Sequence record: PQ014731.1
Length of the DNA stretch: 64,000 nucleotides
Direction: 5' to 3' (one strand)
From: Escherichia phage VB-EcoM-WM
The position numbers and the translations under genes are program-made. Within the stretch, counting starts at the first letter, position 1. The number at the start of each line of letters is the position of its first letter. Under the pieces are notes generated by a model. It ran no database searches and was not told where the DNA came from. It worked only from the letters and a program-made list of their open reading frames with translations. Shown here in pieces: positions 45,344 to 48,700 of this stretch.

Positions 45344-46672
45344 ATGAGTAAAACCAAATTAGAACTTACCTGGGTAGGTAAAAACGAGCGCAAAAAGTTA
45401 GAGCCGCACATTTTGTTAGAAGATTCTAGCAAATCTTACCACAGCCAGAAAGTGACCGAAAACGATATTTTTGATAATAAACTGATTTTTGGAGATAACT
45501 TATTAGCATTGAAGGCGCTAGAGCAAGAGTATGCAGGCAAAGTGAAGTGTGTTTACATAGACCCACCATTCAATACCGGGAGGGCTTTTGAGCACTACGA
45601 TGATAGCCTGGAGCATTCCATTTGGCTGGGCTTAATGAGGGATAGGTTAGAAATAATTCGTAATCTTCTGAGTGATGATGGGGTAATATTCGTTCACTTA
45701 GATGGTTGCGAAATGGCGTATTTAAAAGTTTTGATGGACGAGATTTTTGGTCGTGCAAATCAGTTAAATACCATCTCGATGACCACAAATTCCCCTTCAG
45801 GATTTAAGGCAACAGGAGCCACAGTTTTCTCCACAGCAAACTTTTTGCTTGTATATGCAAAAGATCGCAACCAGAAACCGCTTAACAAAATCTATATACC
45901 TAAAGGGTATGATACAGGATATAACAAATACCTATTAAACCCGGATGACCATTATAAAAATTGGACGTGGTGTGGTATTGCCGATGCGTTTGCAAAGGCC
46001 CATGGCTATAAAGATGCAAAAGAAGCCAAGAAAAAACTGCCTGACACATTCGATGATGAATTAGCACAATTCGCAATTGATAATGCAGAACGTGTATTTC
46101 AATCTGTTGCAATTGGTGGTGGTGCTAAAATAAAGAGAAAAGAAACTATCGAGAAGTCAAAGAAAGATAGGGATAAGGTTTATGTACATCCAAATGAGGA
46201 TGTTGAAGGATTTTATATCGCAAATGGTAGGCAAATGGTCTTTTACTCCAACAGGCTTTTGGAAATTGACGGTGAGATGCAGCCTGCGGAACTAATAACT
46301 GATGTTTGGACAGATATTAGTTGGAATGGAATAGCAAATGAAGGTGGCGTTAGTTTCAAAAATGGTAAAAAACCAGAAGCGCTTTTGAAGCGGATTTTCG
46401 AAATGTGTACGCGAGAAGGCGATTTGGTATTGGATTCATTCGGTGGTTCGGGAACTACTGCTGCTGTAGCTCACAAAATGAAAAGACGTTGGATCTTGAT
46501 CGAACTGGGTGATCATTGTCATACCCATATTATTCCGCGCTTGGAAAAAGTGATCGATGGCGAAGATCAAGGTGGTATTTCTAAGTCTGTAAACTGGCAA
46601 GGTGGTGGTGGTGGCTTCCGTTATTACAAACTTACCCCGGCCTTAATTGCGAAAGATATATCTGATCAATAA
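45344..46672 (+). CDS. DNA methyltransferase (beta-class N6A/N4C, Mod-like)
   Basis: Catalytic motif IV YIDPPFNTG precedes SAM motif I VLDSFGGSGTT. Confidence 0.75.
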   Translation: MSKTKLELTWVGKNERKKLEPHILLEDSSKSYHSQKVTENDIFDNKLIFGDNLLALKALEQEYAGKVKCVYIDPPFNTGRAFEHYDDSLEHSIWLGLMRDRLEIIRNLLSDDGVIFVHLDGCEMAYLKVLMDEIFGRANQLNTISMTTNSPSGFKATGATVFSTANFLLVYAKDRNQKPLNKIYIPKGYDTGYNKYLLNPDDHYKNWTWCGIADAFAKAHGYKDAKEAKKKLPDTFDDELAQFAIDNAERVFQSVAIGGGAKIKRKETIEKSKKDRDKVYVHPNEDVEGFYIANGRQMVFYSNRLLEIDGEMQPAELITDVWTDISWNGIANEGGVSFKNGKKPEALLKRIFEMCTREGDLVLDSFGGSGTTAAVAHKMKRRWILIELGDHCHTHIIPRLEKVIDGEDQGGISKSVNWQGGGGGFRYYKLTPALIAKDISDQ

Positions 46673-46685
46673 AGAGTACAATCAA

Positions 46686-46991
46686 ATGATGAAACGTTAT
46701 AAACCATACACTTTTGAAATCGATTTCGAACTTGACGATATGTTTACTGTAGAAGCTCAGGCAGTTGTCCAGTTGCCAGACCCGGAGTGCCGTGATTCTG
46801 ATGTTGACTATTACGGATTTAGACAAATTACCTATGTGCATGTTTACCACAACGGTGAAGAGGTGGACCTCCACCAACTGCCAAACGATTTGCGACACTC
46901 AATTTACAAACGTGCAGCCCGTGAACTAGAGTCCTATCTGGATGCAGCGACGACAGCAGCTGCATTTGCTGAAGAAGTGGGAGGTTTCTGA
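46686..46991 (+). CDS. hypothetical protein
   Basis: Track ORF starts at TTG 46647 inside the methyltransferase gene; first ATG at 46686. Confidence 0.35.
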   Translation: MMKRYKPYTFEIDFELDDMFTVEAQAVVQLPDPECRDSDVDYYGFRQITYVHVYHNGEEVDLHQLPNDLRHSIYKRAARELESYLDAATTAAAFAEEVGGF

Positions 46992-47389
46992 TGATTACAG
47001 GTGTGAAGATTATCCAATACCACTTAACTAAATTGGAAGATGCTGAAAAAGAGCTTGCAGAAGTTCTGAATAGCGGATATACTTTGCTATCATGCGCCTG
47101 CTCAGATACCTACGCTGTGTGGACACTTATCCGGAAGGAAGAGCCTGCGGGGATCTTGGTGCCAAACCCTAAGATCATTAGTGAGGTGGATGACTATGCT
47201 CAGGACGGCCTGCCAGAAGGCTGGGAAGTATGGGAAGGTGGTGAAAACCCTGCACCAGGTAAGTGGGTAAAATACAAACTACGTAGCGGTGCACAGTACG
47301 CTGACTACTCTGATGACCTGGATTGGAGTCATTCTTCACCAGGATCATCTGCAAGTTCATATGATATCATAGCTTTTCAGGAAGAATAA
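46991..47389 (+). CDS. hypothetical protein
   Basis: 132 aa; RBS ggagg. Confidence 0.4.
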   Translation: MITGVKIIQYHLTKLEDAEKELAEVLNSGYTLLSCACSDTYAVWTLIRKEEPAGILVPNPKIISEVDDYAQDGLPEGWEVWEGGENPAPGKWVKYKLRSGAQYADYSDDLDWSHSSPGSSASSYDIIAFQEE

Positions 47390-47401
47390 GGAGATAGTGT
47401 T

Positions 47402-47884
47402 ATGTCAGATTTTATGTGGAAAGTAGGTTACGCAGCTCCTGAAATGTGTGAGGCTTGCTTTGTGAAAATAGGCCGCGAGGATATCGACAAAGTGATCCTT
47501 AAGTTTCGTGATGTGGCTGTGATCGGCAACCGAGTGCTTAAGCACTTAAAGAATTTGAAGCTCACTAAAAAGAAGTTCTTCGGACTTTTCGAAGAGAAAG
47601 TTGATGCTTGGACCCATTGCATCCAGGAAGCTAAATCTCACTACAGTGCTATCGTTACTCCAGAACGGGTAGCCAAGATGGAAGGATTCATCAACAGCAC
47701 AGAATTTGAGTGTCTGAAAGCTGCACTCGATAGTTATCCGAAATGCCTCAAGCACTTGGACAAGTATGTAGAAAAGGATGGGGAAATGTATCTCACCCTG
47801 GACGCATACTATGAGATGCAAGAAATTTTAAATTTAGATTTGACATTGGTATCCACCGAGTATACAATAGGTATCCGGGTTTAA
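47402..47884 (+). CDS. hypothetical protein
   Basis: 160 aa; RBS aaggagat. Confidence 0.4.
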   Translation: MSDFMWKVGYAAPEMCEACFVKIGREDIDKVILKFRDVAVIGNRVLKHLKNLKLTKKKFFGLFEEKVDAWTHCIQEAKSHYSAIVTPERVAKMEGFINSTEFECLKAALDSYPKCLKHLDKYVEKDGEMYLTLDAYYEMQEILNLDLTLVSTEYTIGIRV

Positions 47885-47889
47885 CACTA

Positions 47890-47918
47890 GGCCCTGCCCG
47901 AAAGGGTGGGGCTTTTTG
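47890..47918 (+). terminator. rho-independent terminator (family B hairpin)
   Basis: gccctgccc-gaaa-gggtggggc followed by ttttt; same hairpin as at 60499. Confidence 0.75.
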
Positions 47919-47935
47919 CATTAGGAGACAGCAAA

Positions 47936-48700
47936 TTGAAATTCATCTACAAAGAACACTACCACAAAGGTGTTGTGTGGAGTCTATTTGACGGGTCTGG
48001 TGGTGCAGTTATTGACTGGGCAAAAGCTGGGTACCTGTGCCTGTGCTTTAATGCAGAAGGTGCTGACCACGGCAGTTATGCAGAGGTGATAACCGATCAT
48101 CCAAATATTCACTATGTGGATTATTGGATTGACCCATGGTTCCCTCAAGAAACTTTTTGCATGTATCCAGCTCCAGACTTTATTCTTGCATTTCCTCCGT
48201 GCACGCATTTAGCGGTATCAGGAGCTGCACACTTTAAGAAAAAGCTTGCTAAGGACCCACTGATCCAGATTAACGCTGTAAAGGATGCTCGGGTTGCAGA
48301 AGAGTTGGGAGAGATTTACGATTGCCCGTGGCATGTAGAGAATCCTGTGGGTGTTATGTCCACGCTGTGGCGCAAACCTGATTACCGTTTTCACCCTTCT
48401 GATTATGGCGGGTATTTACCGGAGGATGATGTAAACCCCTGGTTTCCTGAATTTATAGCTCCACGTGATGCCTATCCAAAAATAACTTGCGGCTGGATAG
48501 GTAATGGATTTATAATCCCGGTCACAAAACCTGTCCCGCAAATAGTTGACGCGGTTAGCGGGTATTCCATGCAACACGCCAAGCTGGGGGGAAAGAGTGC
48601 AAGAACAAAGATGATTCGAAGCCTCACACCCCGTGGCTGGGCAAAAGCTGTATTCTTAGCAAACGAGCCTGCAGTAAGGAGCAGAATTAATGGGAAGTAA
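47936..48700 (+). CDS. DNA cytosine-5 methyltransferase-like protein (compact)
   Basis: Motif I LFDGSGGA, PC motif FPPCTHLAVSG, ENV motif HVENPVG, motif X-like IGNGFIIPV; track start GTG 47906 is inside the terminator, TTG 47936 follows RBS aggaga; start uncertain. Confidence 0.5.
   Translation: MKFIYKEHYHKGVVWSLFDGSGGAVIDWAKAGYLCLCFNAEGADHGSYAEVITDHPNIHYVDYWIDPWFPQETFCMYPAPDFILAFPPCTHLAVSGAAHFKKKLAKDPLIQINAVKDARVAEELGEIYDCPWHVENPVGVMSTLWRKPDYRFHPSDYGGYLPEDDVNPWFPEFIAPRDAYPKITCGWIGNGFIIPVTKPVPQIVDAVSGYSMQHAKLGGKSARTKMIRSLTPRGWAKAVFLANEPAVRSRINGK

Follow-up and report, generated by a model that had tools for sequence, protein, structure and literature searches.

The two genes considered here lie in a 64,000-nucleotide stretch (the window) of the genome of Escherichia phage VB-EcoM-WM (PQ014731.1), a Vequintavirus or rV5-like coliphage, with more than 100 public genomes at 97-98% identity. 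Both are already annotated as methyltransferase genes in those genomes, and they are two of four such genes in the genome as a whole. A sequence-only reading of the window had described them as orphan DNA methyltransferases of different chemical classes, and the family and motif evidence bears this out: the first (ORF A) groups with N6-adenine enzymes and the second (ORF B) with C5-cytosine enzymes (Table 1). The rV5 group is well known; the finding is real but largely ordinary, and current concepts are unchanged by it.

Table 1. Features of the methyltransferase region, in window coordinates.
Feature	Position	Strand	Description
Acquired segment	45331..46681	+	Ribosome-binding site and first 1349 nt of an E. 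coli Type III mod gene
ORF A	45344..46672	+	442 aa; CTD-less Type III Mod-like beta-class N6-adenine DNA methyltransferase (predicted)
ORF A motif IV	45560-45571		DPPF, residues 73-76
ORF A motif I	46439-46453		FGGSG, residues 366-370
Three conserved small ORFs	46689..47884	+	About 100, 132 and 160 aa; between the two methyltransferase genes
Promoter-like sequence	47840-47868	+	TTGACA-17-TACAAT; 11 of 12 consensus positions; directly upstream of ORF B; consensus match only
Terminator-like hairpin	47889-47914	+	11 pairs, then a T run; consensus match only
ORF B	47936..48700	+	254 aa, TTG start; short Dcm-like C5-cytosine DNA methyltransferase (predicted)
ORF B FDGSG motif	47987-48001	+	Motif I
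ORF B PPC motif	48194-48202	+	Includes catalytic Cys
ORF B ENP motif	48338-48346	+	Motif VI
ORF B RSLTPRG motif	48617-48637	+	
Primase/helicase gene	48690..50768	+	Pfam DnaB_C and AAA_25; phrog_239, E 7e-160

In ORF A, motif IV lies N-terminal to motif I, some 290 residues away, with the recognition region between them; this order and a match to Pfam PF01555 (143.9 bits against a cut-off of 26.7, E 9e-42, profile positions 1-216 of 221) agree with the beta-class assignment of the earlier reading, which had placed DPPF before FGGSG. The PADLOC MTase_III model is matched at E 1.7e-201 (model positions 2-442 of 575), the best PDB relatives are the Type III Mods 6k0w and 4zcf, and all of the catalytic motifs are intact. 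By sequence, ORF A is a member of the Type III Mod family. The Asp in motif IV favors N6-adenine over N4-cytosine as the methylated base.

The closest known relative of ORF A is in the host species. The acquired segment is 93.2% identical in nucleotide sequence to positions 7987-9349 of an E. coli locus (L007), and the protein is 95% identical, central recognition region included, to residues 1-438 of a 567-aa E. coli Mod (P0123). In E. coli, P0123 is followed by a 912-aa ResIII protein, within a defence island, and the mod gene is present in 29 of 5426 complete genomes, or about 0.5% of E. coli strains; CFSAN004176, 2014C-3011, LS45, and APEC E16002 are among the carriers. AlexBoehm, a phage without the insert, aligns to the window as far as position 45347 and resumes at 46684, with a 9-nt overlap at the junction; GC content is 39.9% in the insert and 44.5% in the window. 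The alignments identify ORF A as a discrete 1.35-kb insertion with exact boundaries: a Type III mod gene of E. coli, horizontally acquired and reduced to its 5' four-fifths, set between phage genes.

ORF A is without the C-terminal 129 residues of the parent Mod, of which no remnant was found. In the numbering of EcoP15I Mod the homology stops near residue 520, after the MTase domain of that protein (ending at 516) and before its CTD (539-644). A tblastn search of the window and of 116 kb of a relative found no Res-like sequence, and the neighbors are phage genes, in line with the earlier statement that no restriction endonuclease is adjacent. The CTD-less end point is common to three phage lineages, in one of them at another genomic site, and Mods of ~440 aa are also found on non-phage contigs. 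Of 116 related phage records, about 31 have no insertion, and some copies in databases run to only 342-389 aa; absent from a quarter of relatives and sometimes shortened, ORF A is evidently dispensable. Among the BASEL phages, Bas51 and Bas53 have ORF A, and Bas56 (AlexBoehm) and Bas57 (MaxTheCat) do not. Its motifs are intact in 85 genomes, and dN/dS between phage copies is 0.10-0.13, indicating purifying selection.

One possibility is that the CTD-less protein acts chiefly as a dominant-negative subunit, pairing with the 95%-identical host Mod in a complex that does not hold Res, and so poisoning restriction. EcoP15I Mod dimerizes by its NTD and MTase domains, both of which are kept in ORF A; in EcoP15I it is mostly the CTD of a single Mod that holds Res, and Res stability depends on Mod. 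The recurrence of the CTD-less form in diverged phage copies, at two genomic sites and under purifying selection, fits such a role as well. We nevertheless consider it quite unlikely: the argument is wholly inferential, restriction strikes incoming DNA before any phage gene is expressed, a pure decoy would have no need of the catalytic motifs, all of which are conserved, and Mods of ~440 aa are found outside phages as well.

The three small ORFs that separate the methyltransferase genes match PHROG families without assigned function and had no match in Pfam, NCBIfam, or PADLOC. They are unchanged in phages without ORF A, and are neighbors of the methyltransferase genes, not demonstrated partners. 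Restriction nucleases diverge quickly and are often missed by profile searches, and with four neighboring ORFs of no assigned function, one of them could be a cryptic nuclease that makes one of the methyltransferases part of a phage-borne restriction-modification (RM) system. The 160-aa ORF was tried as a candidate: its structure model (pLDDT 60.4) is too poor, because there are only three homolog clusters, for a nuclease fold to be recognized or dismissed, and its loose D..ExK pattern, reminiscent of PD-(D/E)xK enzymes, is not conserved. Such a system is nonetheless extremely improbable, since ORF A came alone, its res partner being left in E. coli; the small ORFs are present with or without it; the ORF B family is found in about 1500 phage genomes, in unrelated neighborhoods and without a conserved partner; and the one recognizable nuclease in the vicinity, an HNH homing endonuclease, lies within the polymerase gene.

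ORF B lies within the replication module, its end overlapping the primase/helicase start by 11 nt. It is kept in all Vequintavirus records found and in related genera, and is a core gene of that module. The Gotham record annotates a promoter and a terminator in the region where we find the promoter-like sequence and the hairpin. The protein, earlier put at 264 aa, is 254 aa long with a TTG start, a size that fits the family range (225-260 aa, with homology over the full length). It carries motifs I (FDGSG), IV (FPPCT), and VI (ENPV); P97, P98, C99 (the catalytic Cys), E145, N146, and P147 are invariant in 32 sequences, and the first Lys (K192) is invariant too.

Pfam, NCBIfam, and PADLOC gave no match for ORF B (for PF00145, none at E 0.01), a few members of its family have precomputed PF00145 matches, and searches of PDB chains, with the protein alone or as a 32-sequence profile, gave marginal matches only (E 0.16-1). 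For this protein the informative methods were fold search and PHROGs, the latter matching phrog_757 at E 1e-86. The fold search recovered the catalytic-domain fold of C5-methyltransferases, with DNMT3 as the closest structure (13-14% identity to the DNMT3A/3B catalytic domain), DNA methyltransferases ranking above the Dnmt2 enzymes that are also among the neighbors, and neighbors that are 60-140 residues longer.

The recognition domain of a canonical C5-methyltransferase has about 80-100 residues, and the canonical enzymes (M.HhaI, M.HaeIII, E. coli Dcm; PF00145) have 320-470 aa in all. In ORF B the corresponding slot, after the motif VIII strand (194-199) and before the C-terminal helices, holds only residues ~200-226 (264-aa numbering). 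The earlier description of an enzyme almost without a target-recognition region is therefore apt, with ~27-30 residues separating the motif VIII strand from the C-terminal motifs. A loop at residues 148-186 is conserved.

Activity data come from relatives. ORF B is 54% identical over its full length (E 4e-86) to the Dcm of phage K42 / KarlJaspers (Bas06), a protein of similarly compact size (236 aa) for which DNMT3 is likewise the closest structure. The two differ in setting, a replication module of a 137-kb myovirus for ORF B and a 51-kb siphovirus for K42 Dcm. K42 Dcm has been reported to make 5mC (LC-MS), with loss of 5mC in a catalytic mutant, to methylate DNA (msDNA) to 5mC in vivo, and to trigger retron Ec86 (Eco1). 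The residues mutated in the inactive protein were C82, E128, K175, and K176; C99, E145, and K192 of ORF B match the first three, and the equivalent of K176 is Ile193 (Ile or Leu across the Vequintavirus clade). DNA of Pantoea phage AAS23, which encodes a 51% homolog of ORF B, has also been reported to be Dcm-methylated. By analogy with these relatives, ORF B most likely makes 5-methylcytosine in a Dcm-type context (CCWGG). The CCWGG assignment of the short Dcm family itself comes from analogy and msDNA mutants, not from a methylome, and literature searches turned up nothing decisive on 5mC in Vequintaviruses or on a methylome-derived target for this family.

The same observations bear on whether one or both genes might have no activity, or a substrate other than DNA, with ORF A as a decaying fragment and ORF B as a Dnmt2-like RNA enzyme or a nucleotide-modifying one. 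ORF A is, after all, truncated and polymorphic, with some still shorter copies, and ORF B misses the Pfam C5 model, is without a normal recognition domain, and has Dnmt2 among its structural neighbors. This seems very unlikely in view of the dN/dS of ~0.1 and the intact motifs of ORF A, the in vivo methylation of msDNA by the ORF B homolog, the invariance of the ORF B catalytic Cys, Glu, and first Lys, and the rank of DNA methyltransferases above Dnmt2.

Phage DNA methylation has been mapped in Bas51 (= WalterGehring), a 97% relative that carries both ORF A and ORF B. Published nanopore data, in which 6mA only was called, place m6A at GATC, GTAC, and other sites. There are 349-576 m6A sites outside GATC and GTAC, and 5-nt Type III sites number 225-310 in the Bas51 genome; the former is thus of about the size that a 5-nt asymmetric site would give, to an order of magnitude. 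The Bas51 N6 adenine methyltransferase (GATC) triggers a retron, and mutants of this GATC enzyme are viable and plate normally without the retron. We considered whether that enzyme could be ORF A and rejected the idea: D69, D79, and T83, the residues mutated in that work, are absent from ORF A, so that the GATC study gives it no motif, and they fit exactly a 177-aa third enzyme encoded elsewhere in the genome, outside the window. GATC is the only experimentally assigned Vequintavirus motif, and its writer is this third enzyme.

For GTAC, nothing decisive on the writing enzyme was found in the literature. Among 4-bp palindromes GTAC shows the strongest depletion (0.55 of expectation), although apparently fully methylated in Bas51, and CCWGG is mildly depleted (0.64-0.82 of expectation); neither depletion identifies a writer.

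The sequence-only reading had proposed self-protective methylation, which these data support in part. Virion DNA of a phage with both genes is methylated, and a 54%-identical homolog of ORF B makes 5mC; the protection, on the other hand, would be narrow at best. In the BASEL study, Vequintaviruses were exceptionally susceptible to EcoRI, EcoRV, EcoP1, and EcoCFT_II, and among the most RM-sensitive coliphages tested; in the raw plating data, Bas50-52 are all strongly restricted by the systems tested, with no protection signal. Any protection must therefore be system-specific. For ORF A, its origin as an acquired, truncated host mod gene makes protection against one particular host system likely, not general protection. 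(CFT073, the strain that bears on a possible relation of EcoCFT_II to the P0123 system, is not among the 25 listed of the 29 P0123-matching genomes.)

Restriction sensitivity also raises the possibility that methylation serves mainly the phage's own biology, for example in replication marking, expression timing, packaging, or escape from mismatch or very-short-patch repair. The position of ORF B, overlapping the primase/helicase start inside the replication module, and its retention throughout the Vequintaviruses and related genera would suit such a role, and regulatory orphan phage methyltransferases are documented, e.g., in P1 packaging. We think this unlikely as the main function, however: an accessory gene straight from a restriction system, as ORF A is, would be hard to square with housekeeping, no methylation-dependent step is known for Vequintaviruses, and the Bas51 mutants in the GATC enzyme grow normally where the retron is absent.

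The explanation that we favor, and hold to be probable, is that the two DNA methyltransferases work independently of each other and without a nuclease, methylating the phage's own DNA as it replicates; ORF A is a captured fragment of a host mod gene, and ORF B a minimal enzyme from a core gene. From the E. coli enzyme ORF A keeps three parts, namely the N-terminal dimerization region, the catalytic domain, and the target-recognition domain; with the last of these retained, its adenine methylation should fall at the short asymmetric site that the parent recognizes. Lacking the CTD that holds Res in EcoP15I, it would presumably have lost Res binding, so that a phage Mod would protect without helping to assemble a nuclease. 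Progeny from any host would be pre-marked against the mod-res system of roughly 0.5% of E. coli strains. ORF B would act as a catalytic core alone, with its short stretch of residues where a recognition domain would be.

Several observations weigh against parts of this explanation. The loss of Res binding is drawn from EcoP15I, a distant relative of ORF A (E 2e-23) whose ModA contacts Res by way of its MTase domain as well; any benefit of the methylation would have to be system-specific; and ORF B has Ile for K176.

Acquired protective methylation is an established concept in phages. A bolder form of this explanation, which we offer tentatively and on balance doubt, is that phages repeatedly keep a Res-blind host Mod cut exactly at the border of the Res-binding domain, which it lacks, and that the Dcm-like family reads its target without a conventional recognition domain. 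The Res-blind form may have been selected for methylating phage DNA, perhaps while poisoning host Mod-Res assembly, without arming a nuclease; the 230-254-aa Dcm-like enzymes may work as a DNMT3-like dimer with divided labor, or with relaxed specificity. If so, the family would comprise the smallest sequence-reading C5 DNA methyltransferases.

Compared with known systems, ORF A is closest to the E. coli P0123 mod, with which it would be expected to share a target, and from which it differs in the missing C-terminus, the absence of res, and the phage setting. EcoP15I Mod (4zcf), a dimeric stand-alone methylase whose CTD contacts Res extensively, shares the beta-class motif order and the NTD-MTase-TRD layout, with a CTD that has no equivalent in ORF A. 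Other phage orphans (T4 Dam, P1 Dmt, the multispecific enzymes of Bacillus phages, M.EcoGII) are, like ORF A and ORF B, nuclease-free methylases by which a mobile element pre-marks its DNA, a strategy known as 'Trojan horse' protective methylation. ORF A would be specific to one host Type III system, with no broad or degenerate specificity; and where the Bacillus phage enzymes stack several recognition domains, ORF B is small by having none.

The methylases that a therapeutic or typing phage encodes determine the restriction systems open to its escape, and are also alarm signals for retrons, as seen with the Bas51 GATC enzyme and the Dcm of a T1-like phage; phage methyltransferases of both kinds thus carry a cost. 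ORF B is a convenient minimal model for studying sequence reading by a cytosine methylase that has no recognition domain. For ORF A, the prediction is that phages with the gene should plate on strains carrying the P0123 mod-res system and relatives without it should not; natural, isogenic-like pairs with and without ORF A exist in the BASEL collection.

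The region at 45000-49000 is 97-98% identical to more than 100 public rV5-group (Vequintavirus) genomes, with near-identical relatives including vB_EcoM_Gotham, rV5 and several BASEL phages. Both methyltransferase genes are near-identical to ones annotated in many of them: ORF A, the Type III Mod-like adenine methyltransferase, as [quoted passage not shown], "putative N6 adenine methyltransferase" or "BamHI methylase", and ORF B as "Dcm-like C5 cytosine methyltransferase" or "DNA methyltransferase". Given these annotations, the experimental work on the ORF B family, and the recognised use of orphan methylases by phages, the finding as such is already known. 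Three points are added here: ORF A originates from one particular E. coli Type III mod gene, as a copy lacking the probable Res-holding domain; it is present in some relatives and absent from others; and the published GATC activity belongs to a different gene. The local order is rIIA, rIIB, Dda/PIF1-like helicase, a 113-aa ORF, ORF A, three small ORFs, ORF B, primase/helicase, DNA polymerase. Between 13 and 16 public records (MG0656xx) carry the name "Campylobacter phage", with Campylobacter jejuni as host, and match this region of an E. coli phage at 96-97% identity; they are probably mislabelled or contaminant assemblies.

Judged from its sequence, ORF A is a captured and truncated host Type III mod gene. 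It matches the PADLOC Type III methyltransferase model (E 1.7e-201) over model positions 2-442 of 575 only, and the closest solved structures are Type III Mod subunits. Its nearest non-phage homolog in the databases is a chromosomal E. coli "site-specific DNA-methyltransferase" (P0123, 567 aa), to which residues 1-438 are 95% identical, central recognition region included; bacterial relatives are nearly all 560-600 aa. The P0123 gene is directly followed in E. coli by one for a 912-aa ResIII-family protein, a mod-res pair present in 29 of 5426 complete genomes. At one E. coli locus a compact defence island, preceded by an AlpA-like regulator and flanked by IS66 genes, holds the parental pair alongside an Abi_2 protein, an AIPR protein and a SNF2/ResIII helicase of 964 aa.

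Nucleotide homology to E. coli begins 14 nt 5' of the mod ATG and stops 355 nt short of the host gene's stop codon, and AlexBoehm (Bas56), a relative lacking ORF A, aligns to the window until 45347 and resumes at 46684, the two matches sharing 9 nt where they meet. GC content is 39.9% in the insert, near the 41.1% of the E. coli mod gene, and 44.5% in the window. Exactly this segment is missing, with all neighbours kept, in about 31 of 116 Vequintavirus records, including BASEL phages Bas56, Bas57 and Bas58, and LL12; absent from a quarter of relatives, ORF A is dispensable. No Res-like or C-terminal Mod-like sequence was found in the window or in 116 kb of one relative; with the res gene left behind in the host, ORF A is an orphan by construction. 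The observation of two orphan methyltransferases in the sequence-only reading is confirmed.

In the structure of EcoP15I, the prototype Type III system, Mod comprises an NTD (residues 14-60), an MTase domain (62-262 and 390-516), a TRD (263-384) and a CTD (539-644), and dimerises via the NTDs and MTase domains of both Mods. By distant homology, the end of the phage/E. coli similarity (…GFRYYKL.P..I.KD) aligns, weakly but consistently, to EcoP15I residues 506-520, between the MTase domain and the CTD; 128 residues follow the MTase domain in EcoP15I, and ORF A lacks 129 of its parent's residues. Given this end point, ORF A would keep all that is needed for dimerisation, site recognition and methylation, and have lost the domain that holds Res. 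Mods lacking the CTD occur in three phage lineages: the window type, one whose protein at this locus is 92% identical, and another phage whose copy, 84% identical, is placed between PhoH and ClpP. Their end points coincide to within a few residues, but their tails differ. Together with low dN/dS (0.10-0.13 among phage copies, 0.11 between phage and E. coli copies), this common end point argues for a selected, working protein rather than decay; pointing the other way, some copies in databases are shorter (342-389 aa). In the large phage with the 84%-identical copy, a 295-aa Dam-type (MethyltransfD12) methylase lies ~1.7 kb downstream of Mod, just past ClpP, where Vequintaviruses carry a 177-aa enzyme; the set of methylases in these phages is modular.

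Features of the window and of related loci (the NPPY and NPPF genes lie outside the window and have the coordinates of the related phage JohannBauhin)
Feature	Sequence	Coordinates	Strand	Remarks
ORF A	Window	45344-46672	+	442 aa
E. coli nucleotide homology	Window	45331-46681		93.2%
Small ORF just 3' of ORF A	Window	46647-46991	+	
Candidate promoter and hairpin together	Window	47840-47914	+	Promoter TTGACA-17-TACAAT
Terminator-like hairpin	Window	47889-47914		
GTG codon	Window	47906		Within hairpin
Ribosome-binding site	Window	47923-47928		AGGAGA
ORF B	Window	47936-48700	+	254 aa, TTG start
Intein-like insertion	Window	52840-53808	+	~323 aa, in frame
Second polymerase insertion	Window	54220-55061		~842 bp; breaks frame relative to JohannBauhin
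HNH homing endonuclease ORF	Window	54360-54866	+	168 aa; phrog_59, E 6e-38
Minimal NPPY enzyme, 177 aa	JohannBauhin L004	32240-32773	-	Experimentally shown GATC methylase, retron trigger
NPPF enzyme, 272 aa	JohannBauhin L004	46016-46834	-	No Pfam hit
Defence island with mod-res	E. coli L007	2106-12464		
84%-identical CTD-less Mod	L016 (Logan contig SRR16894903_17164)	6001-7335		

A Vequintavirus genome encodes four methyltransferases, two of them in the window (ORF A and ORF B) and two, the 177-aa and 272-aa enzymes, outside it. Phage WalterGehring (Bas51, MZ501111), in which ORF A is present, was sequenced natively in a 2025 retron study and its m6A sites counted: 1405 GATC, 509 GTAC and 576 other in wild type, and 35, 511 and 349 in a T83P mutant (PMC12548924). 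ORF A was considered as the published GATC enzyme and rejected, the mutated residues (D69, D79, T83) fitting the 177-aa enzyme instead. No 4-bp palindrome in the window is more depleted than GTAC, with 122 sites against 221 expected (0.55). Over 137 kb this density corresponds to ~522 adenines, matching the 509-511 seen in Bas51, so that, despite the depletion, essentially every GTAC there appears to carry m6A on both strands. Candidates for the GTAC writer are the 272-aa enzyme and ORF A. Type III Mods methylate one strand of asymmetric sites and, given its identity to a genuine Type III Mod, ORF A would more likely account for sites in the "other" class; 5-nt Type III sites number 225-310 in Bas51, comparable in order of magnitude to the 349 such m6A sites left in the mutant. 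GTAC would then more likely be written by the 272-aa enzyme.

ORF B belongs to a CHARACTERISED family, found by tblastn in 1503 of 50,697 phage records and carried by T1-like Drexlerviridae, Dhillonvirus, Klebsiella siphoviruses, and Vequintavirinae and their relatives. The 711-bp dcm gene of phage K42, which shares 95% genome identity with KarlJaspers (Bas06), was examined in a preprint on retron Ec86: escape mutants map to the gene, its expression gave more 5mC on msDNA by LC-MS, a C82A/E128A/K175A/K176A mutant was inactive, the closest structure was DNMT3A, and CCWGG was taken as the target on the model of host Dcm, supported by msDNA mutants only (bioRxiv 10.1101/2023.08.16.553469). The KarlJaspers protein has C82, E128, K175 and K176 at exactly the K42 positions, and aligns with ORF B along its entire length at 54% identity (E 4e-86); the ORF B equivalents of the first three are C99, E145 and K192, whereas the second lysine is replaced by Ile193. 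For Pantoea phage AAS23, whose homolog is 51% identical to ORF B, restriction digests were reported to show Dcm methylation of the DNA, and the homolog in Certrevirus CB7 has a published, HHpred-based cytosine-methylase call. We found no report of 5mC calling for Vequintavirus phages in the literature.

Self-methylation by mobile elements as protection is an established idea, and was proposed for this pair in the sequence-only reading, an interpretation that is partly supported. The relative Bas51 does have m6A-methylated DNA, but broad protection is ruled out by BASEL plating data: Vequintavirinae were found "exceptionally susceptible" to RM systems and, in the raw data for Bas50-52, efficiency of plating was ~1e-4 to 1e-3 with EcoRI, EcoRV left no plaques, and restriction by EcoCFT_II and EcoP1 was strong but variable. 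None of these four recognises GATC, GTAC or CCWGG, so site-specific protection is not contradicted. Carrying methylases also has a cost, since retrons sense both a phage adenine methylase (PMC12548924) and an ORF B-family Dcm (bioRxiv 10.1101/2023.08.16.553469); this may explain the ORF A polymorphism.

The sole recognisable nuclease nearby is the HNH homing endonuclease in an insertion of the DNA polymerase gene. Searches of Pfam, NCBIfam, PADLOC and PHROG assigned the four small neighbouring ORFs, present with or without ORF A, only to PHROGs whose function is unknown. A loose D..ExK pattern in the 160-aa ORF is not conserved in its 46% homolog, and the predicted structure of this ORF is too uncertain for use. 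The small ORF just 3' of ORF A has a weak match (E 7e-5) to the C-terminal part of phrog_1573, labelled DNA methyltransferase; it was considered as a mod remnant and rejected, being conserved in phages without ORF A.

ORF B is a core gene, occurring in every Vequintavirus record found, and its last 11 nt overlap the start of the primase/helicase gene. An initial length of 264 aa is corrected to the publicly annotated 254, because the upstream GTG falls within a terminator-like hairpin and a ribosome-binding site precedes the TTG. Directly before ORF B, a consensus match marks a near-consensus candidate sigma-70-type promoter; the hairpin, a strong one, lies ~20 nt downstream of it, and would thus be in the 5' leader of any transcript starting there, perhaps as an attenuator or as a stem that stabilises the RNA.

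The in-frame insertion in the DNA polymerase gene, missing from JohannBauhin, looks like an intein: it starts CYSGDTQILT, ends ...VAVCGN followed by Cys, has a weak Hint_2 match (E 0.02), and matches internal segments of PHROGs for intein-bearing PhoH-like, ribonucleotide reductase and thymidylate synthase proteins. The BASEL table gives zero inteins for Vequintavirus entries Bas49-56. The second insertion, with the HNH ORF, probably represents a mobile intron of the kind reported from phage CB7.
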